A stretch of 40,969 nucleotides of DNA from Proteromonas lacertae (lineage: Eukaryota): assembly GCA_002245135.1 (NCBI GenBank), contig NGBS01000904.1, positions 1 to 40,969 of the forward strand, read 5' to 3'. Position numbers and translations under genes: made by a program. The notes under the pieces were generated by a model. It saw only the letters and a program-made list of their open reading frames with translations, was not told the DNA's origin and did no database searches. This document shows, piece after piece, positions 16,301 to 40,969 of the stretch. Position 1 is the first letter of the stretch, and every line of letters starts with the position of its first letter.

Positions 16301-19300
16301 ATTGTATTTGATGGTCCAGTAGATGCAGTTTGGATTGAAAATATGAATACTGTGTTAGATGATAATAAGAAATTATGTTTAAACAGTGGTGAAGTTATTA
16401 AAATGACACCAAGAATGACTATGGTATTTGAAGTAGAAGATTTGAAAGAAGCATCACCAGCTACAGTGAGTAGATGTGGTATGGTGTATATGGAACAATC
16501 TAGATTAGGATGGGATGCATTAGTTCGAAGTTGGTTGAATAATTTATCAGATGATTTAGATAAATTTAAAGAAGAAATAATGTCATATTTTGATTGGTTA
16601 TTCCCTCCATTATTGTATGTAGTGAATAATGAATGTAAGAAACTAACACCAATTACAACATTAGAATATACAGCATCCTGTTTAAGACTATTATCCTGTC
16701 AAATGGATCAATTAGAAGAAGGTGAAGGTTCTACCAATAAAAACATTATGAAAATAATTGAAGGATTTATAATCCAAAGTATAATTTGGTCATTAGGTAT
16801 AGTTACTAATGCAGATGGTAGATTAATATTTGACAGAATATTACATAATATATGTGCTGGTAAAATGTCAGCGGATGATTTCTATGAGATATTTATAAAG
16901 AAAAATCCTTGGTATATTGAAGGACCAGAAAGTACAAAAATATTGTTAAGATCAACAGTTGTTCCATTACCAACAGATAGTGTTTATGATTGTTACTTTG
17001 TATTAAAAGGATGTAGATGGAATCAATGGAGTAATTATGTAAAAGATAATGAAATATCACCAGATGCTACTTATAATTCCATTATTATTCCAACTATTGA
17101 TACTGTTAGGACTTCACATTTTATTGATATGTTATTAAGTAATCAATATCATATATTACTCACAGGTGATACTGGTACTGGTAAATCAGTTTCAATCAAT
17201 AACAAACTGTTAAAAGAATTAGATGAAAAGTATATGTGTATAATGATGAACTTCTCAGCTCAAACCTCCTCAAACATGACTCAAGATATTATTGATGGTA
17301 AATTAATAAAGAGACGTAAAGGAGTATTAGGACCTCCATTAGGTAAAACATGTATAATATTCGTTGATGATTTGAATATGCCAGCTAAAGAGAAATATGG
17401 TGCACAACCTCCAATAGAATTATTAAGACAATGGATGGATTATCATGGTTGGTATGATCGAAAGACGAATGATTTCTGTACAATAGCTGATGTACAATTT
17501 ATCACTGCAATGGGGTTACCTGGTGGTGGAAGATCTGTTATTACACAAAGATATGTAAGACATTTCAATGTGATTGGTTTAGTTCCTTTTGAAAGAGATT
17601 CTTTGAAGAGAATTTTTACAAAATTGACTGAATGGATAATGCAGAAATATGCTTCAAGTTATAGAACAATTGGTAATTCTATTGTTGATTCTACTATACA
17701 AATATATCAGAAAATCGCTTTAGAATTACGTCCAACTCCCAATAAATCACATTATACATTCAATCTTCGTGATTTATCTAAAGTATTCCAAGGTATCTCC
17801 ATTGCTGATGCAAAATCTATTGAAAAACCTGATGATATGATAAGATTATGGGGACATGAGTGTTTGAGAGTATTCCAAGATAGATTAGTCGATGATGTTG
17901 ATAGAAAATGGTTTAATGTTTCACTTAGTTCAATATGTATGACTGTATTTGGTAAAGATTGGAATAAACAAATATGTGCTGATAGTAAGAACTTAATATA
18001 TGGTAATTTCATGAATCCTCAAGCTGATCCCAAACCTTATCAAGAAATTAATGATTATAATCACTTGAAGGAAGTAATGAGAGAATATTTAGAAGATTAT
18101 AACAATATGCATCCAACACATATGTCTTTAGTATTGTTTCAAAATGCAATAGAACATGTAGCTAGAATCAGTCGTGTTATAAACCAACCAAATGGACATT
18201 CTTTATTAGTTGGTGTTGGTGGTAGTGGAAGAAAGAGTTTAGCAACTTTAGCAACCTTTATGGCTGATTATCAATTATATAAAGTTGAATTAACAAAGAA
18301 TTATAACAGAAATGAATGGAGAGAAGATTTGAAGAAGTTATTAAAGATAAGTGGTTTAGAAGGAAAACCAGTTGTATTTTTATTCAGTGATACTCAAATC
18401 ATTAATGAAACATTTGTTGAAGATATTAACAACATATTAAACACTGGTGAAGTTCCAAATTTATTTGAATCTGATGAATTAACCCAATTATTAGAAGAAA
18501 TCTCCACATTAGCTCAAAAATCAGGTGTTAATACTGGTATTCCAGCAGAAGTATATAATTTCTTCATTCATCGTTCTAAGACCAATTTACATGTAGTTTT
18601 AGCATTTTCACCAATTGGTGATTCATTTAGAACCAGATTAAGAATGTTCCCATCACTTGTAAACTGTTGTACAATCGATTGGTTCACACAATGGCCAGAA
18701 GAAGCTTTACATTCAGTAGCCAATCATTTCTTAGATGAAATGGAATTACCTGATCGTGTAAAAGATGGCATAGTTAATGTATGTGTTGATATGCAAGAAA
18801 GAGTGAGTCATTTATCTCAGAGATTGAAAGAAGAATTAGGAAGATTCTATTATGTTACACCAACTAGTTATTTAGAATTAATTAATACATTTAAGATATT
18901 ATTAGTAGATAAACAAAAGGAAGTAAATGCAAAGAAAAGAAGATATGATAATGGATTGAACAAATTATTAGATTGTCAAGAACAAGTAGAACAAATGCAA
19001 TTAGAATTGAAAGCTCTACAACCACAATTGAAAACAGCCCAAGAAGAAACAGATGCAATGTTAGAGAAGATTGAAGCAATGCAAGCTGATACAGAAGAGA
19101 AGAAAAAAGTAGTAGAAATTGAAGAAAAAGATTGTACAAGACAAGCTGATGAAGCCAAAGCAATGGAAGCTGAATGTAATGCAGAATTAGCTGAAGCATT
19201 ACCTATTTTAGAGAAAGCAATAGAAGCTTTAAAAACAATAGATAAAAGTCATTTGACTGAAGTAAAATCAATGAAAAAACCACCAGATGGTGTAAAAATT

Positions 19301-22300
19301 ACATTAGAAGCAATTTGTATATTGTTAAAAGTAGCTCCAAAGAGAGTATTTGATTCAACAGGTAGAAAGAAGATTGATGATTATTGGGAAGTATCTCAAA
19401 AGGAAGTATTAGGTGATACTCATTTATTACAAAAACTATTAAATTATGATAAAGATCATATTCTAGTAGAAATCATTACCAAAGTCAAACCTTATTTGTC
19501 AATGGAAAAATTCCAACCAAAAGCTGTTTATACTGCCTCCTTTGCTGCTGGTGGTTTATGTCAATGGGTTCATGCTATAGTAAAGTATGATGAAGTTGCT
19601 AAAGTTATAGCACCTAAAAGAACTGCATTAGAAAGAGCACAAGAAGATAAAGCGAAAGCTGAAGCTCAATTAGCAACCAAACGAGCTGAATTGAAAGAAT
19701 TAGTAGATCAAGTCGAAGCATTACAAAGACAATTAGATAATACAATGAAGAAGAAAGAAGAATTAGAAAAACAAGTAGATGATTGTATGAAGAAATTAGA
19801 TCGAGCTCAAAGATTGATAGGTGGTTTAGGAGGTGAAAAAACACGTTGGACTGAATTCTCCGCAAGTTTAGGAAATGATTATTATAATTTAGTTGGTGAT
19901 ATATTACTCTCCAGTGGTGTAATTGCTTATTTAGGATGTTTCCCAACACAATATCGTAGTGAATGTATTAAAGATTGGTTTGAATTATTAGATCAACAAT
20001 CAATACCGAAATCAGAAGTTTATTCTTTAACCACCGTTTTAGGAGATCCAATAGCCATAAGACAATGGACAATATGGAAATTGCCAAATGATTCTTTCTC
20101 AATTGATAATGCTATTATGTTATTTAAATCAAATAGATGGCCTTTAATGATTGATCCTCAAGGACAAGCTAATCGTTGGGTGAGAAATATGGAGAATGAA
20201 AATCAATTGAAAATAGTAAAACAGTCAGCTTCAACTTTACAAAGATCATTAGAAAATGCAATTCAATTTGGTTCACCATTATTAATAGAGAATGTTCCTG
20301 AATATTTAGAGCCATTATTAGAACCAATATTAATGAAAGAAGTGATAATTGTAGGTGGAACTTCAAGTATAAGAATTGGTGATAATACAGTAAATTATGA
20401 TGAAAAATTCCGATTATATATAACAACAAGATTAAGAAATCCACATTATCCACCTGAAACTTGTGTAAAAGTGAATTTATTGAACTTTATGGCAACTCAA
20501 GAAGGTTTACAAGATCAATTATTAGGTATATTAGTAGGAAAAGAACAAGGAAGTTTAGAACAACGAAGAGTAGAATTGGTATTAAAAGATGCAGAATATA
20601 AAAAGACATTGAAAGATATTGAAGATCAAATTTTACACTTATTAGCTTCATCTGAAGGTGATATATTAGAAGATGAAAAGTTGATTGACACTTTAGCCAA
20701 ATCCAAACAAACCTCCAATGAGATTATGAATGCTGTAAAGAGTGCTGAAGCAACACAACAACAAATATCGCAAGTTAGAACAAGTTATATTCCAGTAGCA
20801 GAAAGAGCATCAGCTTTATTCTTCTGTATTTCTGATTTAGCTGGTATTGAACCAATGTATCAATATTCATTGGATTGGTATATTAATCTATTCTTATTAT
20901 CAATTGATAAAGCTGTAAGAACTAATAAAATCAAAGATCGATTGAATAATTTGAATAATACATTCACTTATATATTATATGAGAATGTATGTCGATCTTT
21001 ATTTGAAAAAGATAAGTTATTATTCTCGTTCTTATTATGTACAAAGATATTATTAATTAATAATGAATTAGATCCAGCTGCCTTTAGATATTTATTAACA
21101 GGTAATACTGCGTTGACAGTAGATGAACCAAATCCAGTAAACTCTGATCCAAAATGGCTAAGTGATAAGAGTTGGAAAGATTTAGTAGGTTTAAGAAAGA
21201 TTCAAGGAATGGAAAAAATAACTGAAATATTCAAAAAGAATATAAAGAAATGGGAAGAATTGTATTACAGTAGTGATCCAATTGAAAAACTGGATGATTT
21301 AATAGGTGGAACATTTGGTAATACTTTCCACAAACTATTAATCATCAAATCCATAAGAAGTGATGTAGTTGTTCCAATGTTACAATTATTTATAACTGAA
21401 AAGATTGGTAGAAAATTCATTGAAATTCCAAGTAGTGATTTAATGGCTTGTTATAATGATTCTAACTGTTGTGCTCCATTAATCTTCGTATTATCTCCAG
21501 GTGCTGCTCCAATGAATGAATTATTGAAATTAGCTGATAAAATGGGTTTATCTAAAAAACTATTTAGTGTTTCATTAGGTCAAGGTCAAGGTAAAATCGC
21601 TCAAAATGCAATAGCTGAAGCTGTGGATCGAGGTACTTGGGTTTGTTTACAAAACTGTCATTTAGCCGAAAGTTGGATGCCTGAATTAGAGAGAATTTGT
21701 GAAGAAATATCTCCTGAAACTACTCATCCTGATTTCCGGTTATGGTTAACTTCCATGCCTTCTCCCAAATTCCCAGCTACAATCTTACAAAATGGAGTAA
21801 AAATGACAACTGAACCTCCGAAAGGTTTATTAAACAGTTTACAAGGTACTTATAACTCATTGGATAAAGAATGGTTTGAAAAGAATAAGAAAAGTAATGA
21901 ATTTAAGAAATTATTATTTGGTTTAGCTTTCTTCCATGCAACAGTTCGAGAAAGAGTAAAATTTGGTCCATTAGGTTGGAATATTCCTTATGTATTTGCT
22001 GATTCTGATTTACAAATCTCAATGGATCAATTGATGTTATTTTTGAATGATTATGAAGAGATTAATTTCGAGATGTTAACTTATTTAGCTGGTGAATGTA
22101 ATTATGGAGGTCGAGTAACTGATGATAAAGATCGTCGATGTTTAATGAATATTTTAAGTGATTTCTATACAATCGATATATTAGATGATAATTATAAATT
22201 CTCACCTTCTGGTATTTATTATGCACCTCCTGATGGTCCATTAGAATCTTATATCGAATATATCAAAACCTTACCAATCAATGAAAATCCAGAGATTTAT

Positions 22301-23269
22301 GGTTTACATGATAATGCGAATATCACTTGTGCAAATCAAGAAACCAGTCGAATTTTAGATAATATTTTATCCCTTCAACCTCGAACAAGTAGTGGAAGTG
22401 GATTGAGTTGGGAAGATCAATTAATGGAATTAGCTCAAACAATCGAAAAGAGAGTTCCTGATCCATTTGATATAGAAAAAGTATCAGTAAAATATCCAGT
22501 AATATATGAAGAAAGTTTAAATACAGTGTTAGTTCAAGAATTGATGAGATTTAATGATTTATTATTAGTAGTGAAAAGTACATTGGTTGATGTTCAAAAA
22601 GCAATAAAAGGATTAGTGGTAATGAGTAGTGAATTAGAAGAATTAGGAAATAGTATGGTAAATGGAAGTGTTCCAGAGAAATGGAAAAATGTATCTTATC
22701 CATCTTTGAAACCATTAGGAAGTTATGTAAATGATTTATGTCAAAGAATTGACTTTTTAAATACTTGGATTGATTATGGATCTCCCAATGAATTTTGGCT
22801 AAGTGGTTTTTTCTTTACTCAATCATTTTTAACTGGAACTCGTCAGAATTATGCTCGAAAATATACAATTCCGATTGATGAAATAACTTATGATTTCCGA
22901 GTAATAAATAAAGAAGAACAAAGTAAAATCACTGAAAAAGCAGCTGATGGTTGTTATGTATATGGTTTATTTATTGAAGGAGCAAATTGGAATTATGAAA
23001 CAATGACATTAGATGAAAGTAATCCAAAAGAATTATTTGTTGAAATGCCTCACATTCATTTACAACCAAAAAGAATTGATGAGATAGACGAGAGTGAACA
23101 TCGATATGAATGTCCAACTTATAAAACATCTGAAAGAAGAGGTGTATTATCAACAACAGGTCATAGTACGAATTTTGTGATGATGATCAATTTACCAATG
23201 AAAGCTGAACATGATCAGAAACATTGGATAAAACGAGGTGTTGCTTTATTAACTCAATTAGATGATTAA
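10333..23269 (+). CDS. DNAH1: Axonemal inner-arm dynein heavy chain, DNAH1-like (~4294 aa, one intron at 11605-11656)
   Basis: P-loops GPAGTGKT, GETGCGKT, GDTGTGKS and GVGGSGRKS; CFDEFNRI, FITMNPGYAGRSELPDNLK, stalk coiled coil and C-terminal HWIKRGVALL. The N-terminal LPPLEEFDD...TPEEW resembles DNAH1/DHC2. A 52-nt GT-AG intron joins the two ORFs in frame. The ortholog assignment is less certain than the family call. Confidence 0.93.
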
Positions 23270-23553
23270 TTATTATAATATATTATTTAATATATTCATC
23301 TTGTTTATGTTTACTAGATGTATTAAGTAATAAATGAAAATGAATAAACAATAATTGAAAATATAGTTGTTTTATTTGAGAATATATATATATTTCTTTT
23401 ACAATTCTCTCTTTTCTTTCCATATTAATGGATGATTTTAAATGTTTAAATATTGAAGATTTTCATTTACTAATTTGACAATACTATTCAGATTTCTCCT
23501 ATATTATAACATAATAATTAAAAATGGATGAATAGAAATCAAGCTTGTATATA

Positions 23554-23610
23554 GTATATAAATGGGACTCTGACACTTGTACCATAGTCCCATTTACGTA
23601 AGGTTCCTAC
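23554..23610 (+). repeat. Left TIR of element A with internal 11-bp inverted repeat
   Basis: GTATATAAATGGGACTCTGACACTTGTACCATAGTCCCATTTACGTAAGGTTCCTAC is the reverse complement of 30905-30962 with 1 mismatch and 1 indel. TAAATGGGACT (23559-23569) pairs with AGTCCCATTTA (23586-23596). Confidence 0.95.
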
Positions 23611-23683
23611 TGTGTCAACTTCCCTATGAGACGATCTAGAGTCTCTTGCTGCGCTGGTAACAAGTTACCAAATGGTAACTCCG

Positions 23684-24123
23684 GGAGGTTCTAGCTAGTT
23701 GTGGATTTCTCAAGGCCCTTGAAGATAATGATTAGCAATCTCGGAAGGCTTCTGAAGGTAAGTTTTATCATCCTTATAACTCTCCTAGATAAGTTCATCC
23801 ACGACCTTCCCGAGAAGAACAGCCTTGTTGGCAAGGAAGGAATCTCCCATCATGAGAGATTCCCTGACGTAGTCATGCACGGCTGGACGTATCTGGGAAG
23901 GTCTTGATGGTTCTTCTATTAATCAGTGACTTTACAACTGGAGGTTCTGGTTAGTACTGGATTTTCTCAAGGCCTTGAAGATCATCGTAAGTATTCTCGG
24001 AAGCTTCCTAGAGGTAAGTCTAATCGCCCTTGTTAATCAACTAGGTAACATTCAATTATCATCTATCCTAGCAAGGAAGGGATGTTCCTCCTTGAGTTGT
24101 AACTCAAGGAGGAACCTCCCGAC
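23684..24123. repeat. Two diverged ~185-bp direct repeats rich in palindromes (23684-23868 and 23940-24123)
   Basis: Collinear shared blocks GGAGGTTCT, TGGATTT, CTCAAGGCC(C)TTGAAGAT, TCTCGGAAG, AGGTAAGT and GCAAGGAAGG. Each copy ends in a hairpin. Confidence 0.8.
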
Positions 24124-24359
24124 AAAGCCATGGAACTTCCATCAAAAGACTTCATTGCAAAGCCAAGGAACATCCACAGATTGTTGACTGAGTAAATTTC
24201 AATACCATTCTAAGTCTTCAAGATAAGCTACTTCTGGTAATCGTGGAAACTCAAAAGGGAATCTCAAGAGTTAACAATTGTAAAGACCTTCTTAACAATC
24301 TCCGATGAGTTCAATATTCCAGCAATTCCTATCGATCTAAGCATACAGCAATAATAATT

Positions 24360-25881
24360 ATGCAACCTTACAATCCCTTTAGAGTCGTGGCTGAGCATCA
24401 TGGAGATGACAAGAGCAACCTTACTCAGGAGATGTTCAATAGCTACTGGGATAAGAAGATGGAGCTCTTTGAAGCAGTACGAGATGCAGTAAAGGATTAT
24501 AAGGACGTAGTTGATTACACCTTGGGGAAGTTCAAGGAGTCTAAACAACCAGCCGATGAAATCAACACCTTAGAGACTCTTGCACTGGATCTAAGCAAGT
24601 ATCTGGAGTTCACTGCTAGCTATCGTGAGTTGATAACATGGAGCAAGACTTCTATCGATGATCCAGATCTGAAGGACTGTGGATGGATACCTCCGATAAG
24701 CTACTCTTCAATCATTCCTTTATGGCAGTCAAGACACTTTATCAATAACCCCAACTACAAGGCAATTAAAGTTGCAAGGAGATGGACGATGATGATCTAC
24801 GATAGTTTCATCGACTGGAGCTATTGCCATCTTAAAATCTTAAAGGATGTGTATTCCCGATATCAACCAGACTCAAGTAGGTTCAACCCGAAGGATTATA
24901 GAGCTCCTTACCCGATAGAACTACCTGTACTTGGTTGACATTGGTTTATTCGATAAGGATGGTAATATGCGAGATGCTTTCTCAGCAAGATCAATCAAGG
25001 GAAGATTCATCCAGCTTACTCCCTATGATGTTCCTAACTTCATGAGCAGGACAATCAAGAGACCGATGCTAGAGCAGTACCTTAGCAGGTTTAATATCTA
25101 TGGCTTATACACACGATCCCGTAAGGCCTTTAAGAAATGTCAAGAGAAGATCAAGGAGCTGATAACTCAATACCGAAACAGTCCCGAACTGATAGAAGAA
25201 GTACCAGAACTACTTCTTTTGGAGGATCTCAAGGAGCTGACAATACCTCAGTTCATCGAAGAGCTCAAGGAGGTAAAGGTTGTTGAAGAGCGCATCGAAG
25301 CTAGGCATACTCCATCATGGTGCTTAACTCAAGTGAAGAGCATTATAAGGAACGTGTTGAAGCTCCGATCAGCATTGAAGGCGATCCAAGAACCCAACTA
25401 TCGATGCTCGGAGAAGTATAAGAGATTCTACGATGGGATGATCAACTTAAAGTATTTCACTGCAAAGTATTTAAGCAATCTCCTGGAGTTCAAGATCAAG
25501 GTCGAGGACTATGCCGAGATGTATGATTACTATCACTGGGAGAACCACAACAAAAAAGAGAACCACTTCACGGAGGAAGACTCTGATGAGTTGATGAAGG
25601 ATGCTAGCAAGATTGTTAGTGAAATGAAGGAGCAAGAACAACTCGAAGAGTTCAACAGCACCAAGGAAGAGACCTCAAAGGACATGAAGCTGGAGACTTT
25701 AATCTCAGAAGCATTATCAGTAGTCAATAACCCCGTGAGGTCGGAGGAATTACAAGGGCAAGTCACCTGTGAGCTAACATCAACACCCAAGGAAGATGAG
25801 GACATAGTCACCAAGAGAAGCAGAAGCTCCTCCGAGGATGTAGAATCGCCTAGCTCAAAGAGACCAGAACTTAATCATTAA
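24360..25881 (+). CDS. Orphan protein(s) of element A; ORFs of 192 aa and 316 aa, probably one ~506-aa gene split by a +1 frameshift at ~24930
   Basis: The ORFs overlap by a few bases, the second has only a TTG at the junction, and codon usage is uniform (AAG/GAG-rich). The C-terminus is acidic/basic with NLS-like KRSR...KRP. Confidence 0.6.
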
Positions 25882-26085
25882 ACGCTAAGTCATAATAAGC
25901 AACTGTTGTCCTAGCTGTGATCAAGATAACATAAAGGAGCAAACGAAGAAGAAGAAGAAGTGAAGTTAGAAGACCTCGGAAAAGTTCATGATTGGAATCA
26001 TCGGAGAAGTCTATGATCGGATTCTACGTGAAGTGAAACACCTGGTAGCTATCAGTTTTTAATTTCCAAGTACTTCTCAGGAAGT

Positions 26086-29000
26086 ATGAAGAGATCATTA
26101 CCTAGCGATAATACTCCAGCAAAGAAGCAAAGGACTTCAAGGAGCCCGAGAAGAGATCGCGCAGTAGTTCCACCGATGGTTAATGATCCAAGAGCATTAC
26201 CTATGGATCAGAGAGTTTTCAACATGCATGAGAAGGAGTTGTCTTCCATGGAGTACTCTAGGGTAATCCAGATGGAGACTCCTCAAATGACCTTAAGAGA
26301 TAATCCAGAAGCCTTCGTCAATCAACTATGCTATGGCAATGAACCATTCTACGATAGATTGGAGCAGATACTGACTGCTCATGTGAACCTCAAAGTAAGC
26401 ATCACATTGATTTGTACCTTCGAAGAGACCGCAGGCACCAACAAGATCTATACTGTCAAGTGCGATACATTCCCAATCAACAACTTCATCGATAGGAAGA
26501 GCATCCAGGATCTATTCCAAGCAGCGATTCATGATAAGCTCAATAAGGACTTAGCTCAAGAGAAGTCAGGGATGATCTTCAAGACAATAGATGGGGTCAA
26601 AGTAAAGCTAGCAGTCTTTGATAGCATGCAAGGAGGATGTTGTAGGATCCCGAAGTTGCCTGAGTTTATTGCTAATAAGAAGTGTTGTTGTACAGTAAAG
26701 AACACTGACGATCGATGCTTCCTTTACTGCATCGTGATGTTCTTAAAACCTTCCTGTGGTACTAATCCTAATCGTCCGAAGCAATATGAACCCTTCCTAT
26801 CCATGGTCGATGATAGCATGTTAACCTACCCAATGGACTTAGACTTCCATCATAACAAGATTCAACAGTTCCAGAAGAAGAACCACCTTACCATCTCCAT
26901 CTTCGGTCTTAAGATCATCAATGAGGAGTCAAAGAAGGAGAAGAACCATATCCATTGCGTAGCTCCAATCTACTTACCGAAGATCGATAAGCACTTAAAC
27001 TACCCCCATGTGAATCTATTCTATCATGAAGGTCACTTCTGGTTAGTCAAGAGTCTCAGCGCCCTTATGAAGAGATCGTACTCCAAAGACACCGGTAAGA
27101 AGAACCACAACACTTACTTTTGTTGTCCTTACTGTTGCTCGGGAACAACTTCCTTCCGGCAGTTCCTTACTCATCAAAGTTATCCCTGCCAGAAGCTTAT
27201 CAAGTACCGTATCAAGAGAGAGTTCCCTGACTCAAACGATTATGAGAAGAGCCATTGCTTCTTTAAGCACTACAAGAACATGCAATACATCCCCATTGTC
27301 ATCTACTACGATACCGAGGTCTATTTCAAGAAGGTATCCCACGTTGATGCAGATGGTAATGCCTTAAACGAAAGCAAGACTGAGGAGTCCAAGAAGTCCC
27401 TTCACGTATTATACAGTTATCATATCCTTGTGTGGAGTAGAGTCGATGACTTCCCTTCAAGGTGCATTGAAGGCAAGAAGACAAGTCCCGATCAGAACTT
27501 AGAAGAAGAGCTAGTGAGTCAGTTCCTATTGATCGGAGAGTTGATTGAGGACTATTATCGAGAGATCAGTGATAAGCCAAAGGTGATGAGAGTAACTAAG
27601 GATGATCAGGCAGCTTTTAATGAAGCAACTAACTGTGCCTTCTGTGGTGAGTTGTTTACCAAGGAGAACTATAAGGTAAGACATCATGATCACTTCACCG
27701 GTAAGTACATCGCAGCCTTATGCAATTCCTGTAACACAGCTTGCCAGATTGCTTATATGAGAATCCCGGTGATAGCCCACAATGCTAAGAACTACGATCA
27801 GGCATTCATCCTACGAGAGTTAGCTAAGAGATGTCAAGTAGATGTGATACCAAAGTCCGATGAGAAGTTCCTTAGCATATCAACCTTACGATTGTCCTTC
27901 ATTGATAGCTACTGCTTCATGTCCTCTAGCTTAGAGTCTCTTACAGAGTGCTTACATCGTCAGGCAGTCCAGTCCGGGGACTTCAAGAAGTACTTTGCCC
28001 TGGTGTTCTATGTGATGAACCAGATCAAGGGATATGATGAAGAGTTGATCAAGACTTACCTCATGCAGAAGAACTACTTCCCTTATGAGTATTGTGATGA
28101 CTTAGCCAAGTACGATGACCCAGAGTTACCACCACAAGAAGCTTTCTACTCAGAGCTCAATATGAAAGGAATCAATGAGGAGGAGTACAACTTTGCCTGT
28201 GAAGTGTTTAAGAAGTTCAAGTGTCAGTCCTTAGGTGATTACAACATGCTTTACTTAGCCGTCGATGTTGGCATCCTAGCAAGTGTCTTTGAGAACTTCC
28301 GTAATGTTATCCTCGGAGGGTTCCAGTTAGATCCAGCCTGGTACATCTCTGGTCCTAGTTTATCATGGGATGCATTCCTCCAGCATGAGCACATCAGCAT
28401 CCCCTTGATCTCCGAGGAAGACATCTACGACTTCTTCATAGCTGGCCTTTACGGAGGTATCTCATCTATGGGAAGTGAAAAGTATAGCACTAGTAACAAC
28501 AAGTATCAGAACAACTACGATCCATCGGAGCCTTCTACTTATATCATGTACAATGACTACAATAGCTTATGCCCATCCACGATGTCCTCCAGCAAGTTAC
28601 CATGTGGAGATTTCAAGTTCATTGCCACGACCGATGAAGTCATTCAAGAAATCCTCTCGAAGCCTTATTACGATGACATGTCTATGAAGGAGTTCAAGGA
28701 GCCAGGTAAAGGATACTTCCTCGAAGTCGATATCGAGTGTCCGAGAGAGCTTCATGATAAGTTCAAGGAGTATCCTTTGTTCCCAGAACGAAAGACAATC
28801 GCTTACGATCAGCTATCACCGACTCAGCAGGCATTAGCTCAAGAGCATGGATTGGTGCTAACAACAGAGGATGGTAAGATGACCATGAAGGTAAAGACCG
28901 AGAAGTTGATCTGCGATCTCACCCCTAAGAAGAATTACGTAATCCATAATCAGGCACTTAAGTATGCAGTTGAACAAGGTTATAAGATACAAGGTGTCCA

Positions 29001-29994
29001 TCGTGTGTTGGAGTTCACCGAAGAACCTCTGATGAAGACCTTTGTGGATGATATGATCCGATACCGAGTAGATGCAAAGAAGAGCAATCGTACTGCCGAT
29101 AGTGATACTTATAAGCTATTGTTGAACTCCATCTATGGTAAGAGCTGTGAGCGTAAGGAACGACGATCCAGCATCAAGATAGCCTGCTCCGAGAAGACCT
29201 TTAAAAAGTACGCTAGCAGCAACTGGTTCGATACCTTCAAGAACTTAGATGAAGAAGATCCAGATCTCCGATTATGTTATTTCAATAAGTCCGCCTGCTT
29301 CATTGACATGCCCATCTTCCTCGGTACATCAATCTTATGCTTATCGAAGTTGAAGATGCAAAGGTTCTGGTATGATGTTCTCTATCCCTTGTATGGATCC
29401 TCCTTGAAGTTGCTTATGACTGATACCGACTCCTTGCTTTATAAGTGTCAGACTGAAGACATCTATCGAGATATTATGGAGCATAAGCAGTTCATGAGGA
29501 TGATGGACACTGGCAATCTCAACGTTGACATCTTAAGGGATAGAGGAATCGTCTATGACAATTACAAGGACACTGGCAAGTTGAACTTATTGAAATGTGA
29601 AGAGAACAAGAATGGTAAGCTTTATACAATCACTCAGTTCGTCGGAATTAAACCAAAGATGTATGCTTACGAGAAGAGTGAAGCTTCTTCCGTCTACGTG
29701 GAATGTGATAGCCGTGCAAAGGGACTCAATAAAGCCTTAAGAGAACAGAAGAACTTTGACGTCTACTTCAAGACTCTCTTCAACATGCTACCCATGGAGG
29801 ATATGAATTGTAAGACCAGGAACTTCCGTGTCCTCGATCAGCACATCTACACCGTAGAGACCACCAAGAGAGTCTTCACTCCCTTTGATGATAAGAGGTA
29901 CTTTATCGATCACATTAGAACATTGCCTTATGGGCACTACTCAATACTACCGAAGGATCAAGAGGATGATGATGATTTCAATGAGTTGTGGTGA
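26086..29994 (+). CDS. Protein-primed family B DNA polymerase (Polinton-type: terminal protein, vOTU-like protease, Zn finger, exonuclease with inserted endonuclease VII-like HNH, polymerase)
   Basis: ExoI YYDTE, ExoII HNAKNYD, ExoIII YLAVD; Pol motifs DYNSLC, KLLLNSIYGK, MTDTDS and KPKMY; C-terminal FDDKRY...TLPYGH typical of Polinton pPolB; NTDDRCF...HF and CAFC...HHDHFTG...LCNSCN. Confidence 0.95.
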   Translation: MKRSLPSDNTPAKKQRTSRSPRRDRAVVPPMVNDPRALPMDQRVFNMHEKELSSMEYSRVIQMETPQMTLRDNPEAFVNQLCYGNEPFYDRLEQILTAHVNLKVSITLICTFEETAGTNKIYTVKCDTFPINNFIDRKSIQDLFQAAIHDKLNKDLAQEKSGMIFKTIDGVKVKLAVFDSMQGGCCRIPKLPEFIANKKCCCTVKNTDDRCFLYCIVMFLKPSCGTNPNRPKQYEPFLSMVDDSMLTYPMDLDFHHNKIQQFQKKNHLTISIFGLKIINEESKKEKNHIHCVAPIYLPKIDKHLNYPHVNLFYHEGHFWLVKSLSALMKRSYSKDTGKKNHNTYFCCPYCCSGTTSFRQFLTHQSYPCQKLIKYRIKREFPDSNDYEKSHCFFKHYKNMQYIPIVIYYDTEVYFKKVSHVDADGNALNESKTEESKKSLHVLYSYHILVWSRVDDFPSRCIEGKKTSPDQNLEEELVSQFLLIGELIEDYYREISDKPKVMRVTKDDQAAFNEATNCAFCGELFTKENYKVRHHDHFTGKYIAALCNSCNTACQIAYMRIPVIAHNAKNYDQAFILRELAKRCQVDVIPKSDEKFLSISTLRLSFIDSYCFMSSSLESLTECLHRQAVQSGDFKKYFALVFYVMNQIKGYDEELIKTYLMQKNYFPYEYCDDLAKYDDPELPPQEAFYSELNMKGINEEEYNFACEVFKKFKCQSLGDYNMLYLAVDVGILASVFENFRNVILGGFQLDPAWYISGPSLSWDAFLQHEHISIPLISEEDIYDFFIAGLYGGISSMGSEKYSTSNNKYQNNYDPSEPSTYIMYNDYNSLCPSTMSSSKLPCGDFKFIATTDEVIQEILSKPYYDDMSMKEFKEPGKGYFLEVDIECPRELHDKFKEYPLFPERKTIAYDQLSPTQQALAQEHGLVLTTEDGKMTMKVKTEKLICDLTPKKNYVIHNQALKYAVEQGYKIQGVHRVLEFTEEPLMKTFVDDMIRYRVDAKKSNRTADSDTYKLLLNSIYGKSCERKERRSSIKIACSEKTFKKYASSNWFDTFKNLDEEDPDLRLCYFNKSACFIDMPIFLGTSILCLSKLKMQRFWYDVLYPLYGSSLKLLMTDTDSLLYKCQTEDIYRDIMEHKQFMRMMDTGNLNVDILRDRGIVYDNYKDTGKLNLLKCEENKNGKLYTITQFVGIKPKMYAYEKSEASSVYVECDSRAKGLNKALREQKNFDVYFKTLFNMLPMEDMNCKTRNFRVLDQHIYTVETTKRVFTPFDDKRYFIDHIRTLPYGHYSILPKDQEDDDDFNELW

Positions 29995-30146
29995 GACCAG
30001 TAACACGCATAAGCTCATAGCTTTTACTATCAACGAGTGTTTAGGGTACTTGTAAAGTCACTGGAGTAAGAATCATCGGAGATAGCTAGTTGGTCTTTTC
30101 CTTGTCATTCAAAGAGCTACTTACAATCACCCACAATTACTTATCA

Positions 30147-30644
30147 ATGGAAGCCATCGGTAACAACTTACTCCAGACCGTAGATTGCCCAAGTGATAAC
30201 AACTACCCGAAGTTACCATCAGAGAATGAAAGGCAAGTGTTAGAGATGTGGATGAACAGGGCCGAGCAGATCTATCATTCCCTGGTCAGTGGAGAAGCAC
30301 GTATACTCTACGATGAAGCAATCTCTCGTTATTGTAAAGACGAGATCATCAGTAGTAGCTTCGGAAAGGCTTACAACCTCTTGGACACTTGCGAGAAGAT
30401 TAACATGGAGAGTTGTCTTGGACAAGGTGCAATGATAAGAGACTTAAGGCATCGACTCAATTAAGAGAACGAAGTGTACCTTGTAGGCAATTCAATTAAG
30501 AGAAAAGCATCTCTAGGAAGCTACTTGAAGGATAAGAGACGTAGACTTAACAAGAGCAAGGAGTCTTCCTCTGACGATTCCTCCTCCTTCTCTGAGAAGG
30601 ATGAGGAATCACCGGAGGAAGACTTTACCGAGGACAATGCTTAA
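30147..30644 (+). pseudogene. Orphan ~165-aa ORF of element A interrupted by one TAA (30462-30464)
   Basis: After the TAA the same frame continues ENEVYLVGNSIKRKASLGSYLKDKRRRLNKSKESSSDD...EDNA*, with a bipartite NLS-like motif and an acidic tail. Confidence 0.55.
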
Positions 30645-30904
30645 CCAACACCCCCAAGAAGCCAAAGTAAATGATCTTAAGATAATCAACCTCCTACATT
30701 CATTCTCTAGTCTTTGTAAGGGGGGTAATAGAAAACATAGCTTCATCATCCCGAGATAACCATCACTTCTAGATAGCTTCCAGGAGTCCCCGTAGGAGAT
30801 CGTCTCATAGATAGATAGATATAGGTAGGTATAGAAATAGCTTAGAGGAGTTCCAGTAAGGAAGTAGACCCCGTTGAGAAGTAGACCCTGTTGGGAGGAA
30901 TCCC

Positions 30905-30962
30905 GTAGGAACCTTACGTAAATGGGACTATGGTACAATGTGCCAGAGTCCCATTTATATAC
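30905..30962 (-). repeat. Right TIR of element A
   Basis: GTAGGAACCTTACGTAAATGGGACTATGGTACAATGTGCCAGAGTCCCATTTATATAC, an inverted copy of 23554-23610. Confidence 0.95.
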
Positions 30963-30968
30963 TATATA

Positions 30969-33900
30969 ATAATGATATACCAATAATCAGCGATACATTC
31001 TTTGGTGGATTAATGCCTTCTTCCCTACCAAAACCTAACCAAAATCAAAGATTTAATGATAGAATACGTGATGCTAGAGAAGTTGATAAATCATCTCAAG
31101 GTGTTACCAGGAAATGGGTTTTCAATTATAACAATAGAAATTACAGTACATTACAACAATGTTATCATGATTTTGTTAATAATAGTGATATCAAAGATAT
31201 ATTACATGAACTAGCTGATACTATGAATATGATCAAATTTTTCTTTATTGTACGTTCAATTTATATACCTGATGAGTCTACTGACAGCGATGATGAAGTT
31301 TCTATATTTAGTCGTAGTAGACTATGTGAAATAACAAAAATGTCTACTGTAGGTGAAATACAAACTATACTGGAGAATATATTTACACAAATATCAGAAG
31401 ATGATTCAAATCATCCTCAAAGTGGTCTTACTTTTGCTAGAGTAAATACTATTGAATTATATGTAACAAAATTTAAAGTGATACGTGGAAGTAGTTTTAT
31501 TGTTTTACCTGCAAAATTTCAAGGTCTTAGATGTTTAACAAATGTAATAAATGAAGATAATGAATGCTTTAAGTGGAGTGTACTATGTTCATTATATTCT
31601 AATAATCTACAATGTAATAAAGATAAACCTGAAAAATACAAAATGTATGAAAAGAAACATGATTGGAGTATGTTAACATTCCCTGTTGATGCTACAGACA
31701 ATGAATCTATTGATAAATTTGAAACAAAGAATCGACTAAATGTGAATATATTTTATATTGATATTGCTAAAGATAAAGAAGAAATATTCTTACCCATTCA
31801 TTTATCTAAACAAAAGAAATCTAAAAAATATAGTGTTGTAAATCTATTGCTAATAAAAAATGAAGATGGAAATTCACACTATTTAACAATAAATGCCTTA
31901 CCTGCTTTATTTAGAAAAATGATAGATAAAAAGAATAATACTAATAATATATTTATGTGTCCATACTGTCTCTTCTATACTTACGATGATGGATCCTTTA
32001 ATAGTCACCAAATATATGACTGTCAAGATAAAGAGAATGTATTAAGATTATTCCCTGATAAAGATGATAAAGAAAAATCATACTTAAAATTTAGGCATTG
32101 GACTCACCTCCAAACATTGCCAGTTGTTATGTATTATGATACTGAAACTTATTTTGTACCATATGATAATGAATTGAATTTAAGTAGATATAAATCTATG
32201 GAAGAAATAGATGATAATGATACTAGAATAGAATTATCAAAAACTGAGCAATCTATTATGGCTAGGCATAAGCTTTATTCCTACTGTATCTATGTAAATA
32301 GTAAAATACCAGATATAAACAGTTTTACTGTGATTAAATATAAACAAAATGAGGATCATAATATTGAAAATGATTTTGTATTGGATATATTAAATATATA
32401 CGATCAAATATGTACAGTTTACAATTACAGACTAGCTAATCCTAAACCTTTTGATGGAGATGAAATAGCTAAGGATATACATAATAAAAAGAGAAAATGT
32501 GACTTTTGTGGTAAACCATTTAATTCTATTGATCATGTAAAGGTACTACACCATGATCATTTCACAGGTCATTTATTGCTTCAATTGGTAGTAATGAGAA
32601 TCTAAATATTGATATAAAAAAATTAAAAGTACCAATAATAGGTCATAATGCTATGAAATATGACCAGCATTTCATAGTAAAGGAATTAGCCAAATTTGCT
32701 GCAATAACTAATAGCCCACTCAATATTATACCTAATACAGATGAAAACTATAAGTGTATACAATACAAGAATTTGGTGTTTATTGACAGTTATTTATTCT
32801 TAGCAGGTTCTCTAGCAAATTTAACTAGTGATCTAAAAATTACAGCAGAATTAAATAATACTAAGAAAGAAAAATTCAAAACAATTTATGAGAATTTTAA
32901 AGAATATAATGGACATTACCTAGATGATGAAATTATTGAAAAATACTTACTTCAAAAGAATTATTTTCCATATGAACATATGACATCTCTTGAAGCTTTT
33001 GAAGAAAATTTCAAAGATCTTACTATAGATGATTTTAAGTCTAAATTGAATGATAATGAAACTATTAAACCTGAAGAATTTGATTTTGCTATGGAAGTAA
33101 ATCAAATATTTGGATTTGATAATATACGTGAATACAATTTATTTTACTTGAAAATTGATGTTTATATTCTTCAGTCTATATTTAATGATTTTAGAGATAA
33201 TATATTTGATACTTTTCATATAGATCCTTGTTGGTATATTTCATTACCCAGTTTATCACTCGATTTATTCTTGCATGTATCTGATGTGGAACTTAAATTA
33301 TTTTGTGAACCTGAATACTATGATTTTATATTGAATGGTTTATACGGTGGATTATCATATATTGGTAAGCGTAAGGAAGATGCAAATAACAAATTTATGA
33401 AAAATTATGATGAAACTTTACCTAGTAAATTCTTATTATATCAAGACTATAATTCTTTATACACTTCAGTTATGGCTTCTTGTAAAATGCCTTTAGATGA
33501 CTTTGAATTTATTGATCCAAATTCTATTACATTAGAAAGTATACTTGATTTACCATATTATGAAGAAATGGATCAAGATAGATTGGAGAATAATGATTTT
33601 GGTTATATATTAGAAGTTGATATTGACTTACCTATAGAACTACAAGACAAGTTTAAAGAATACCCATTGTTACCTGAAAGGAAGAAAATACCTAAAGAAT
33701 GGTTATTTGATATACAAACTGAAAGAGCTGAAAATCTTGGTATTATACATAAAGAAAGAGGTACTTACCATGCTACTGAGAAATTAATAACTGATTTGTA
33801 TCCTAAAGAAAAATATATAATACACTACCAAAATTTGAAGTTTGCAGTTGAACATGGCTATAAAGTGGGTAAAGTGTACAGAATAATGAGATTTACTGAA

Positions 33901-34372
33901 GGTCTATATATGGGTAAATATATTAATACTATGGTACAAAAAAGAGTCCAAGCTAAAGAAAACAATCAAAATACTACTGCAGACTATATAAAGAAATTAA
34001 TGAATAGCTTATACGGTAAATTTATGGAACGTGTTGAAAAGAGAAGTAACATATCTTTAATTACTAATGAAGATCAAATGATTAATGCTGCAAGTGATCC
34101 ATGGTTTAAAGACTTTATCATTATTGAAGGTGATTTAAGAATTGCACATTTTCATAAGAAGCTATATGAAATTAATAAACCTATACAAATTGGAATGGTT
34201 ATCTTAGCACTGTCTAAACTCAAAATGCAAAAATATTGGTATGATGTATTGGATAAAAAATATGGTTCTGATAAGCTAACACTATGTATGACTGATACTG
34301 ATAGTATACTTTTCTCAGTTGAAACTAATGATATTTTTAAAGACTTAGAGGATCCTAATAATAATGAAAGAA
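30969..34372 (+). pseudogene. Element B: AT-rich Polinton-type pPolB, frameshifted at ~32570 and truncated after motif C
   Basis: Collinear with pPolB A: IRGSS, NEDNECFKWS...HY, CPYC, YYDTE, CDFC...HHDHFTG, then a 1-nt deletion (GGT CA TTT ATT GCT) before ...PIIGHNAMKYD, DYNSLY, KKLMNSLYGK and MTDTDS. Homology stops at ~34370; the KxY motif and C-terminus are missing. Confidence 0.9.
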
Positions 34373-34455
34373 AGGGGGAAATAGCACAGTGTGCCATTTC
34401 CCCCTATGGTTTTTTGATTCAAAAAAAGATCCGTTTCAATGTGTGCCATTTCCCC
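34373..34455. repeat. 33-bp palindrome plus a repeat of its right arm (putative terminus of element C)
   Basis: AGGGGGAAATAGCACA-G-TGTGCCATTTCCCCCT (34373-34405, 1 mismatch); GTGTGCCATTTCCCC recurs at 34441-34455. Confidence 0.85.
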
Positions 34456-34609
34456 ATATTGTTTTTTCATCATTAGAAACGTTTTTAATGCATAATAAAT
34501 ATATCAATCGATTTCTCTATTTATGCTGGGCTCATATATGCCCTTAGTTTGACTTTCTGATCATAATCGAAATTTAATTTTCTTAAAAAAATTCAAAAAA
34601 CAATGATAG

Positions 34610-34661
34610 ATAGGATGGCCACTATACTGTGTGATATGACACCATATAGTGACCATCCTAT
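34610..34661. repeat. Subterminal hairpin (17-bp stem)
   Basis: ATAGGATGGCCACTATA (34610-34626) pairs with TATAGTGACCATCCTAT (34645-34661) with 1 mismatch; inner GTGT/ACAC pairing. Confidence 0.85.
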
Positions 34662-34834
34662 ATCAAATAAAACAAAATATAGAGTTCAAGCCAAATCACT
34701 TTTGAAACGCATCTATTTTTCTATTATTGATATTTCTTATAAGACTTGTTATAATGCTAATTAATTATGTAAATTATGAAAACAACACTCCCACACAAAC
34801 ACAATATATCATTTGAACCAATTAGGACCAGAGA

Positions 34835-35627
34835 TTAATAATCATTTTGGTACTCTGGCTCCACATCATCATCATCATCTACTATAAATTGTGACAAGTT
34901 ATCATCATCCTCATCTTCCTCTGTACTGGTGTCTTCTTCCTTTCTGTTTGAATTTCTTTTCTGATTGGTCTTCTTTCTTTTGAATCTTGGAGCTTTAGAT
35001 GTACTGCGCTTTCTTTTGGTGGATGACACCTTTAACAACTTGTTGTCATCATCATCATTATAATCATCATCATCCAGATTATCAAACAACGATGCTATAG
35101 AGACTTTACTACTTACTATACTTTCAGCAGTACTTCTGTAAACAATATCTCCTTTCGAATTCTTGTTTTCTTCTTTTTCGCATTTTGCTAAATCGTTGTC
35201 ACCGAAATGTATGATATACATACAAGTCAGTTCTATCATATCCTCCATTGCATGGTCAAGCATACGATCATACTATTGATTCAAAATTGAAATATATATT
35301 AAATGAATATACGATGCTTTTGTCCAGATCCTCTTTATACACGATATTACATAGCAGGACAGACATCAACACTCTGGACATCTTTAATCTTTCATGATGA
35401 TCATCAATCTTTTCAATTTCTGTGAATCTTTTGTACCATGTAGTGAAACGCCTTATACTGAAGTTACCATTCCAGCTATAGACATATAATAATATAATAT
35501 ACCTATAACGTTGCAAATCTTTCTCATGTTCTACAATCGTCTTAAAATTCTCACATAAAATTTTATATATGCTCGGATTTGGATCATTAATGAAGCTGTT
35601 TTTGTATAGTATCTTCCAGTTGCTCAT
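34835..35627 (-). CDS. Orphan protein with basic and acidic C-terminal tail, probably two spliceosomal introns
   Basis: A 40-nt GT-AG intron (35273-35312) joins the 133-aa and 142-aa ORFs in frame (DKSI|YDRML). A 27-nt in-frame GTATAT...TAG segment (35476-35502) looks like a second intron. Confidence 0.7.
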
Positions 35628-35793
35628 AATAAGTGAATTGAAAGGGAAATAACGTTGAACGATGAACAAATGTTATATGTATATATATATATTTTTTAAA
35701 TGTTGTTATAAAGACATATAACTCTATTAATTTAGATAATAATCATAATGAAATGAATTTCATTATTACTTTTGTTTTTTGTTTTTGGACCAT

Positions 35794-37080
35794 ATGTTTA
35801 GCACTAATAGTTACGATCCACATTTATACAGCTCATATAGCAACCAAAACCCATATCCTGTCAAACCGTTACCTACAAATGGTAACTTATCACTTGCAAC
35901 ATATATTAACCATGGAGCACCGAATATTACACATCCAACAAGAGAGGCTTCGTATGAAGACCAAATGTCAAACCAAATTGCCCAATATCGATCACGCTTA
36001 GATGAACTATATAAAAAATATTATTACCTTAATGAAAATGAATTTATCAAAATGACACAACATTTGTCTAGTATAAATGATATAGCTCCACCACCAGATG
36101 TAGTACGTGAATACTTAAGGAGACAACCTGGAAAACAAATTGTTGATTTCAAATATAAAAAAAATAATCCATTCGCAACTATCAAAAAGCCTGGGTACTT
36201 CCAAATGGATATAGTGTTTTTCTTACCTGATATGGAACATTTGTATTTTATCGAAATGAATTCAAGAAAAGTATGGGCAATATTTATGCCTAATAAATAT
36301 GGTGATATTACATTGGATGCATTTCAGAAGTGGTATTATGAAACAGATGCCTATGGAAACAAAACACATAAAAATGTGGTAAGTATCCTATCAGATGCTG
36401 ATGCTAGTTTTTCAAATATCAAGAAGTTATGTGATGCTGAAGGAATATCATATTTTCAAAAAGATGGTTCTGAGCATAAAATAGAGTCATTATTGGATAG
36501 ATCAGTGAGTGTGATAAAAAGATTGTTGTACAAACACTTGGTGGATCTGGGATATGATGCACCTACATATATGGCAGATATTGATCACAATGATAAGCAT
36601 ATTATACCAGATATGAATTATAAATTAAAACTCGATAGTATAATACAGGAAGTGATAGATGACTATAACAACAAGCCATTACCAGGAATTAAAGGATATA
36701 CACCAAATGAGGTATTCCATAGTCCAGAATTACAAAAACAAATATTACAAAAATCAATTAACTACAACTTAAAGAATTATGAAAAATTGGACCATACTGG
36801 TCAAAATTTCGAAGTAGGTGATTTGGTGAGATTCAAAGAGAGAAGACGTAAAATGGATAAGAACATATACTGGTCAGACAATGTATATAAGATAATCAAG
36901 AAAAATCGATATTCATACAATTTAGGTGATATCAATGGGAATGACATTCAAGGTTTTTCATTAATTCGATTCAAACACTATGAGTTGCAGTTAGTGAGAA
37001 AAGATGATGCACCAACCACATGGTTTAGAAAAATACTGGAGAGACCCAAGAGAAAGAAGGGAGACAAATCAATATTGTAA
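35794..37080 (+). CDS. Polinton-type retroviral-like (rve) integrase
   Basis: FQMDIV (D1), ILSDAD (D2), SLLDRSVSVIKR (third acidic position), YNNKP...IKGYTP and C-terminal FEVGDLVR...WSDNVYKI...Y.L.D..G..I.G...ELQLV as in Polinton integrases. First ATG used. Confidence 0.88.
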   Translation: MFSTNSYDPHLYSSYSNQNPYPVKPLPTNGNLSLATYINHGAPNITHPTREASYEDQMSNQIAQYRSRLDELYKKYYYLNENEFIKMTQHLSSINDIAPPPDVVREYLRRQPGKQIVDFKYKKNNPFATIKKPGYFQMDIVFFLPDMEHLYFIEMNSRKVWAIFMPNKYGDITLDAFQKWYYETDAYGNKTHKNVVSILSDADASFSNIKKLCDAEGISYFQKDGSEHKIESLLDRSVSVIKRLLYKHLVDLGYDAPTYMADIDHNDKHIIPDMNYKLKLDSIIQEVIDDYNNKPLPGIKGYTPNEVFHSPELQKQILQKSINYNLKNYEKLDHTGQNFEVGDLVRFKERRRKMDKNIYWSDNVYKIIKKNRYSYNLGDINGNDIQGFSLIRFKHYELQLVRKDDAPTTWFRKILERPKRKKGDKSIL

Positions 37081-37131
37081 CGAATAAATTTTTATTATGT
37101 TATATATTGTATATGTTGTTTTATTATTATT

Positions 37132-37328
37132 GGGCATTGGATAGACTAGCTACGATGAGGGCTGCGTTTCTAATTTATAATTATTTATTTATTTATTTAT
37201 TAAATTAATTTCACAAGGAATTTATGGAAGTTTAATAATTTCTACTTGGATGTGTGTTGTTTAATATTGCGCCATTGAAATTCGGCTTGAATCATCCTGG
37301 CACGGTATATCTAAATGCCCTTTTTTTT
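37132..37328 (+). ncRNA. Putative Pol III panhandle ncRNA 1 (VA-RNA-like, ~190 nt)
   Basis: 5' and 3' arms are complementary: GGGCATT/AATGCCC, GGATA/TATCT, GCTA/TGGC, GATGA/TCATC, GGGCTG/CGGCTT. Degenerate B-box GGCTTGAATCA (37284-37294), followed immediately by T8. Confidence 0.6.
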
Positions 37329-37336
37329 ATTTAATT

Positions 37337-37431
37337 GGGATCTGATAGACTGTGCAAGGAAAAAAGAGTCATGCAGCTGGCATTAGTGGTTCGATTCCTA
37401 GCACAGACTATTAGTAATCCCATTTTTTTTT
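37337..37431 (+). ncRNA. Putative Pol III panhandle ncRNA 2 (VA/vault-RNA-like, ~85-90 nt)
   Basis: GGGAT/ATCCC, CTGATAG/CTATTAG, CTGTGC/GCACAG and AGGAA/TTCCT pairings; perfect B-box GGTTCGATTCC (37388-37398); T9 two bases after the closing CCC. Confidence 0.72.
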
Positions 37432-37493
37432 AATTTCTTTTTTTTTAAATATTTTATTATACATATACATATAGTATATTCTATTTTTTATAT

Positions 37494-37901
37494 ATGCTTA
37501 CACTACCACCACAGATTGAATATAAATTACCAGAACTTGAATCCAAGGTAACAAAGAAATATCATTTAAGTGGTCCAGACATATACTTGGATTTGTATAG
37601 CCTACAATTCCTTATATTTTTTTATTATCGAAAACCTATATATCAATGGTATTTTGAGTTAACACACAAAATGATTAACATGATCATGAGTCAACGTTTG
37701 ATATTAGTGTTTGTAGGTCCTTGTGACTTAGGAAATAGAGATTATCCGAAAGTTACATATACACCAACAATGAAAAAAGTAATCATTAGAATGCCACAAA
37801 GATGTTTTAATGGTAAGATGCCAATATTCTTCAAATGTACTCATATGGATAGAGAGATGATAGAATATATTGAAACTCATACAATATTTCACCACACATA
37901 A
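37494..37901 (+). CDS. Hypothetical protein, 135 aa
   Basis: ATG-initiated ORF between very AT-rich spacers; no motif recognised. Confidence 0.5.
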   Translation: MLTLPPQIEYKLPELESKVTKKYHLSGPDIYLDLYSLQFLIFFYYRKPIYQWYFELTHKMINMIMSQRLILVFVGPCDLGNRDYPKVTYTPTMKKVIIRMPQRCFNGKMPIFFKCTHMDREMIEYIETHTIFHHT

Positions 37902-37961
37902 CAAAACAGAAAAAAAAAATAATTAAGTAATAATTTTATATTATATATATATATATATATA

Positions 37962-40962: not shown

Positions 40963-40969
40963 AACCCAT

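Follow-up and report, generated by a model that had tools for sequence, protein, structure and literature searches.

Polintons, also known as Mavericks, are integrated elements of 15-20 kb with inverted ends, and their Alpha-class family B DNA polymerase, described by its OTU and pfam03175 domains, is also reported from the Blastocystis 'MELD' viruses (PMC8502044). Smaller relatives have already been published, namely a set of nine capsid-less Polintons (PMC4028283), the capsid-less, plasmid-like fungal pMVRE lineage, in which terminal inverted repeats (TIRs) bound a protein-primed family B polymerase (pPolB) (PMC13215967), and the helper-dependent linear plasmids of the yeast cytoplasm, which are the killer and cryptic virus-like elements (VLEs; PMC13348850). 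Here we describe an element of 7.4 kb (positions 23548-30968) from Proteromonas lacertae (assembly GCA_002245135.1, contig NGBS01000904.1), within an analysed stretch of 40,969 nucleotides that we refer to as the window. We propose that the element is a self-copying, helper-dependent offshoot of the Polintons, copied by protein priming from hairpin-bearing ends and integrated by an RVE integrase acting in trans, and we give this reading a probability of roughly 0.45.

The element is like Polintons in being integrated, in its inverted ends, in the terminal protein (TP)-vOTU-exonuclease-palm order of its PF03175 polymerase, and in having a neighbour of the same polymerase clade with integrase-like and protease genes. 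Unlike Polintons, it is only 7.4 kb long and has no integrase, ATPase or protease gene and no recognisable capsid gene. Its ends are short, at about 60 nt, and contain hairpins, and its polymerase, which has DYNSL in motif A, falls into a separate clade. Transpovirons, which are about 7 kb in size, are likewise linear, capsid-less and helper-dependent. However, they are parasites of giant viruses and encode a pPolB that is fused to a superfamily 1 helicase (S1H) and lacks an exonuclease, whereas the pPolB of the element has intact exonuclease motifs and no helicase domain. A preliminary description of this DNA had likened the element to a transpoviron, a comparison that fails on the polymerase. 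The element acts like a non-autonomous Polinton and is neither a canonical member nor a transpoviron; non-autonomous Polintons were reportedly described by Kapitonov and Jurka in 2006.

Capsid-less Polintons and pMVREs share with the element a polymerase between inverted ends without virion genes, and differ from it in that the element additionally lacks an integrase (PMC4028283, PMC13215967). The pMVREs represent a mavirus-related polymerase lineage (PMC13215967), which was left out of our tree. The VLEs resemble the element in their small size, inverted ends, dependence on a helper and own polymerase of the same domain order; unlike the integrated element, they are reported as cytosolic and unintegrated, with a helper plasmid needed for maintenance and expression (PMC13348850), and the element itself showed nothing recognisable as a toxin, immunity or housekeeping gene. 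Mitochondrial linear plasmids have a polymerase without a vOTU domain, in contrast to the element, which has the vOTU residues Cys211 and His317. A preprint on Polisuviricotina, which are related viruses, reports tandem integration and replicase modules that, like the element, are bracketed by repeats of their own; such modules either adjoin a Polinton-like genome in tandem or sit within it. The preprint proposes them as a route of replicase exchange (10.64898/2026.10.13.758929). Full-text searches, several of them directed at other questions, turned up no account of an integrated element that has a full Polinton-type polymerase and lacks both integrase and capsid; published supplements may list such elements. 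The preliminary description spoke of a candidate new family, which a single copy does not show. Capsid-less, TIR-bounded pPolB elements have been described before (PMC4028283, PMC13215967).

Local alignment of both ends placed the TIRs at 23548-23610 and 30905-30968 (63 and 64 nt); 62 of the 64 columns agree, and the remaining two are a single mismatch and a single indel. The extent and near-identical ends given in the preliminary description are thus confirmed. Each TIR contains a hairpin, at 23559-23596 on the left and 30919-30957 on the right. Folded in the same orientation, the left hairpin is weaker than the right (-9.3 versus -12.7 kcal/mol), a sign of probable drift at the left end. The left TIR takes in an ambiguous TATATA, a motif that flanks the element on both sides and, being palindromic, could belong to the end or to the target. 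Since TATATA is its own reverse complement, target-site duplications (TSDs) of 2, 4 and 6 bp all fit when the possible boundaries are enumerated: the 6-bp reading leaves G...C ends, and the AG...CT reading, which starts with AGTATA, gives 4 bp. Vertebrate Mavericks are reported to have 6-bp TSDs and (AGT)2 or (AG)3 ends (PMC8097293). The 6-bp TSD suggested previously is therefore one of three lengths that fit equally well.

The composition changes in a step at both ends, from a G+C content (GC) of 28.1% in the left flank to 42.5% within the element and 29.3% in the right flank. Third-position GC is 0.48-0.55 in the four open reading frames (ORFs) of the element versus 0.11-0.28 in seven ORFs of the host and the neighbour. 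The four genes of the element are all co-oriented and occupy 77% of its length. Judging by this codon use, the element probably resided for long in a GC-richer host and arrived here fairly recently. The tiny introns, the compact, AT-rich genome and a dynein heavy chain of axonemal appearance fit a protist, possibly one similar to Blastocystis. In Blastocystis, GC is reported to range from 21 to 55%, with introns often of 30 nt (PMC12129017), and elements that combine an Alpha-class PolB with an integrase are described (PMC8502044); given this spread of GC, a GC-richer relative of the host is plausible as the donor.

The pPolB gene (26086-29994, plus strand) is an open frame of 1302 aa that matches PF03175 (E-value 1.7e-21). 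Its sequence predicts the domain order terminal protein, vOTU, exonuclease and palm, named after a study that assigns this order to Polintons and cytoplasmic plasmids (10.1101/2024.03.18.585575). An endonuclease-VII-like finger with conserved histidines is also present (E-value 6e-5), as in most polymerases of this class. We assessed conservation in an alignment to 27 other rows. Counting rows with a residue at the position, Ser161 is conserved in 22 of 22, Cys211 in 21 of 21 and His317 in 22 of 22, and nearly all aligned relatives agree in the carboxylates of the exonuclease and in motifs B and C. Motif A reads DYNSLCPS. Its Cys829 stands at a position that is filled in 26 relatives, 25 of which have Tyr; in family B polymerases this Tyr acts as the steric gate, and substitutions there are reported to impair activity (PMC10639073). 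The element shows private departures at 4 of 131 conserved columns, its database relatives P0001 and P0002 at 3 of 131 and 1 of 120, and the C-terminal part of the neighbour polymerase at 8 of 87; overall, the pPolB is no more degenerate than its relatives.

The chance that a frame of this length contains no stop is 0.34 at 0.5% neutral divergence, 0.12 at 1% and 0.03 at 1.6%, so the pPolB frame is unlikely to have stayed open beyond about 1%. The stop-free frame together with Cys829 indicates a copy that is young yet not pristine, or one that carries sequencing errors. Decay of this copy has probably begun, as seen in Cys829, an internal stop in ORF4 and the two differences between the ends. 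Where the preliminary description had a complete, probably recent element with an intact pPolB, both ends, the open PF03175 frame and the young age stand, and intactness does not extend to motif A.

Among ORFs of at least 100 aa with the codon pattern of the element, three accompany pPolB, all on the plus strand, rather than the two orphan genes counted previously. ORF1 (24360-24938, 192 aa) has no basic cluster and a low-confidence four-helix-bundle model. ORF2 (24967-25881, 304 aa) is predicted at low confidence to be all-helical and has an acidic tail containing KRSR. ORF4 (30147-30644) runs for 105 aa to a TAA at 30462-30464, thus spanning 30147-30464, and continues for 59 in-frame codons beyond it. 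This extension has the codon-position GC pattern of the upstream part and a basic-then-acidic tail, and the two parts are likely one gene interrupted by the stop. The preliminary description gave all proteins of the element clusters resembling nuclear localization signals (NLSs); ORF1 and ORF4 before its stop have none, and the KRK...KRRR cluster sits after the TAA.

None of the orphans reached a family cut-off in Pfam, PHROGs or NCBIfam. No homologs were found for ORF1 in 1.84 billion representatives, the Atlas or plasmids, for ORF2 in a word search, the Atlas, phages or, at an E-value below 0.4, PDB sequences, or for ORF4 in the family libraries and PDB sequences, the only collections searched with it. 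Single-sequence models of ORF1 and ORF2 are helical, with low confidence. Of the orphan fold searches suggested in the preliminary description, the one with ORF1 gave nothing in Foldseek at an E-value of 0.001 or better, a result that excludes no family, and the ORF2 model was too poor to search. Other fold matches of the ORF1 model were generic helical bundles only (best Z of 12.1, root-mean-square deviation of 2.5, 133 aligned). The orphans show no similarity to each other or to the ORFs of the neighbour, except for a compositional match of two basic-acidic tails.

We searched the non-polymerase part of the element by tblastn with 79 queries, namely six ORFs of the neighbour plus those of six related loci. 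There were no matches, while the control recovered the integrase and protease of the neighbour. For an RVE integrase, neither the integrase-like ORF of the neighbour nor that of the viral contig L001 matched the element in this search, and a profile comparison with an integrase alignment gave no match (probabilities of 0.4 and 0.1, both below 1); Pfam alone is insensitive here, as it also missed the integrase-like gene of the neighbour. For a packaging ATPase, no orphan has a Walker A motif and tblastn gave no match. For an adenain/Ulp1 protease, Pfam detects one in the neighbour and none in the element, with tblastn also negative. HUH and HxLR motifs are missing from the orphans, and no broken gene stump was found at any possible deletion point. 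As far as these sequence tests reach, integrase, ATPase and protease are absent. A capsid gene is unlikely, given no Pfam or tblastn match in the element and all-helical, low-confidence models for ORF1 and ORF2. The preliminary description had listed all four as unrecognisable, which is confirmed for integrase, protease and ATPase. L001, a source of queries, is a viral contig of Polinton-like character; its ORFs, labelled by eye, include integrase-like, pPolB, ATPase-like and capsid-like ones.

A broken, AT-rich, Polinton-like element begins 44 nt to the right of the 7.4-kb element (31013-40969) and had been missed in the preliminary description. In a 34-row tree, the polymerases of the element, this neighbour, P0001 and P0002 form one clade with a support (SH-aLRT) of 98, separate from animal Mavericks and viral contigs. 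The tree is a quick, midpoint-rooted version without plasmid, mavirus or Blastocystis polymerases, from which 11 of 35 database matches and two of eight loci were dropped for short coverage. P0001, the closest database polymerase, comes from a contig of 7,636 bp and is extended by a long acidic stretch inserted behind its exonuclease II motif, while P0002 terminates early past motif C, perhaps at an intron. These two are the only close relatives among the 35 database matches, and relatives with DNA context comprised five distant loci on viral contigs, three distant loci on metagenome contigs and none on genome contigs. The element and neighbour polymerases are 31% and 43% identical over two parts, with no DNA match longer than 30 nt; the element is thus no deletion derivative of the neighbour.

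We propose the following course. The terminal-protein domain would prime synthesis through Ser161 at each end, and the vOTU domain would then cleave the terminal protein off, as proposed for Polintons (10.1101/2024.03.18.585575). The element would be copied as linear DNA, its hairpin-bearing ends doubling as origins and as integrase substrates. The RVE integrase of a Polinton-like element of this lineage would have placed it in a TA run that lay at, or inside, the left edge of an older relative. Integration in trans gains support from the neighbour, which bears integrase-like and protease genes and belongs to the same polymerase clade. The sharp GC steps, the conserved catalytic residues, the lack of gene remnants, the co-oriented genes, the hairpin-rich ends and the tandem integration reported in the preprint also speak for the proposal. 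Packaging in helper capsids is conceivable. Self-replication with helper integration, as put forward in the preliminary description, remains the best reading, and its NLS and TSD arguments are weaker than stated there.

Several points weigh against this proposal. The TSD length is ambiguous, and the canonical AG...CT boundary yields 4 bp, not the 6 bp of Mavericks. The end sequence of the element occurs nowhere else in the window, so the neighbour is not shown to share it, and the neighbour is itself broken, with a polymerase only 31-43% identical to that of the element. Because substitutions at the steric gate impair activity, Cys829 may make this copy replication-deficient. The folds of the two modelled orphans are of low confidence (predicted local distance difference test scores, pLDDT, of 42 and 57), and a single copy does not establish a stable family. 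Moreover, a clean loss of a whole gene module would leave an identical picture.

Such a loss is the core of an alternative that we regard as somewhat unlikely, namely a recent internal deletion in a full-length, GC-rich Polinton family elsewhere in the genome, which removed the integrase and capsid module in one step and spared the polymerase module and both ends. Genomic Mavericks are mostly degraded according to the literature, and the signs of decay in this copy would agree; the lack of a gene stump at any possible deletion point argues against a deletion, and the neighbour, the nearest candidate parent, is too divergent and differs in GC. The 7,636-bp contig of P0001, known here from its protein alone, would rather fit a similar minimal element. 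The gene content also corresponds exactly to the replication half of a Polinton, as expected if the element were the polymerase segment of a two-segment Polinton with a same-end partner that carries integrase and capsid and no polymerase. We consider this improbable, as the sole integrase-bearing element in view has its own polymerase, another GC and no common end in the window. The self-copying, deletion and two-segment readings agree that this form cannot integrate alone, and they differ on whether a lasting family exists. A stable, polymerase-only satellite family without integrase or capsid, which crosses protist lineages of differing GC, is integrated by Polinton integrases beside Polinton polymerase genes and feeds polymerase swaps, is an unlikely extension of our proposal.

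We see only a slim chance that DNA repair, without an integrase, once trapped a free, Polinton-derived linear plasmid of the kind known from fungi as killer and cryptic plasmids. Cytoplasmic linear plasmids resemble the element in size, in their short inverted ends and in the TP-vOTU-exonuclease-palm polymerase, plasmid-like pPolB lineages without capsids are reported (PMC13215967), and a TSD is not proven; on the other hand, ends kept to the last base seem better suited to enzymatic integration than to repair, the polymerase clusters with that of an integrase-bearing element and has a basic N-terminus, and there are no transcription genes. It is more doubtful still that the element is autonomous, with ORF1 and ORF2, perhaps spliced into 497 aa, as an unrecognised recombinase, or with the endonuclease-VII-like finger homing into Polintons. 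The orphans have no detectable homologs that would point to a function, a 31-nt intron could join ORF1 and ORF2, and the finger histidines are conserved; against this, there are no HUH, HxLR or Walker motifs, the integrase alignment gave no match, the models are plain helical bundles and the finger is common to the class. The foreign GC and codon use would allow foreign DNA joined into the contig during assembly. We give this artefact hardly any credence, as the junctions fall exactly at the inverted-repeat ends and the nearest polymerase relatives include the neighbour on the same contig.

Polinton-like viruses often swap replication modules, and capsid-less forms have arisen repeatedly, yet intermediates are scarce. 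A complete, young polymerase-module element that abuts an integrase-bearing clade relative could be such an intermediate in either process. With it, integration in trans by a Polinton integrase becomes testable, and it represents a polymerase clade that is nearly unsampled. Should full-length copies turn up, the element would be an ordinary defective Polinton of a new lineage, whereas satellites that persist as a family and insert next to the polymerase genes of Polintons would be raw material for polymerase swaps among Polinton-like viruses.

Besides the hairpin internal to each TIR, the subterminal DNA of the element contains three further strong hairpins. One end has three against a mean of 0.05 and the other two against 0.1, and none of 100 first-order resamples reached either number; the filter demanded at least four G+C per arm, which biases any comparison with the AT-rich host DNA. 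The hairpin at 30562-30624 is strong, with 31-nt arms that are 87% complementary. The other two, at 23839-23863 and 24079-24120, terminate two diverged direct-repeat units (23684-24126, plus strand; 109-nt core, 72% identical, spacing of 256 nt), in the same place and with different sequences. Intron-like GTAA...AG pieces of 31 nt, the size of host introns, lie at 23758, 24014 and 24192, and 23684-24310 can be viewed as two to three diverged units with one piece each. These units could be spliced non-coding or 5' untranslated units, origins, or a decayed duplicated small gene; the repeat region has no Rfam match, and the left 750 nt of the element gave no convincing spliced gene. A CARTGTGCCA core common to the right end and a neighbour hairpin was discarded, being a post-hoc choice with three occurrences at one mismatch versus 2.7 expected by chance. 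A scan for the end-hairpin pattern matched two viral contigs, L009 and L010, of which L009 has phage-type ORFs and no polymerase ORF listed.

A possible 31-nt intron (24927-24957, plus strand, GTA...AG) would join ORF1 and ORF2 into 497 aa. Such joins arose in 111 of 1000 shuffles, and this one is not significant. Host introns of 32, 32 and 42 nt restored the frame in three of five host ORFs tested. The gap between ORF2 and pPolB (25900-26060) contains an ORF of 24 codons and, in one frame, resembles the element in its codon use; it may be what is left of a gene.

In the neighbour, the pPolB gene (31013-34368, plus strand, 27% GC) changes frame near 32560-32590, and some 170 residues at its C-terminal end are missing from the window. 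We compared four readings of the empty site. An in-frame ATG for this polymerase results only with a TA duplication, and all four leave 4-8 open codons to the left of the junction; nesting inside the neighbour polymerase gene is therefore not shown, and the arrangement may be nested or tandem. The integrase-like ORF (35794-37080, plus strand, 428 aa) is of the retroviral type, with no Pfam match and a weak match to its counterpart in L001 (27% over 165 aa). The protease ORF (37962-40712, minus strand, 916 aa) has a C-terminal Ulp1/adenain-type protease and a relative, P0036, with 43% identity across 98% of the length; the N-terminal 740 aa are of no recognised kind and are common to P0036. The neighbour also has small orphans, and neither a recognisable capsid gene nor an end was found before the window stops within it. 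Between 34350 and 35750, the polymerase match ends and is followed by strong hairpins (34373-34405 and 34610-34661) and two minus-strand ORFs (142 and 119 aa), of which the first has a basic-then-acidic tail; this stretch may be another insertion.

To the left, a host dynein heavy chain gene (11828-23269, plus strand), presumably axonemal, ends 278 nt from the element. Two host BTB-domain genes form a tandem pair (3264-4326 and 6437-7506) with about 73% identity and introns of 32 and 42 nt at matching places. A further host gene (987-2783) probably encodes a surface protein, with a Thr/Pro-rich repeat, a C-terminal hydrophobic segment and no Pfam match, and the ORF at 11-523 repeats a portion of this gene.

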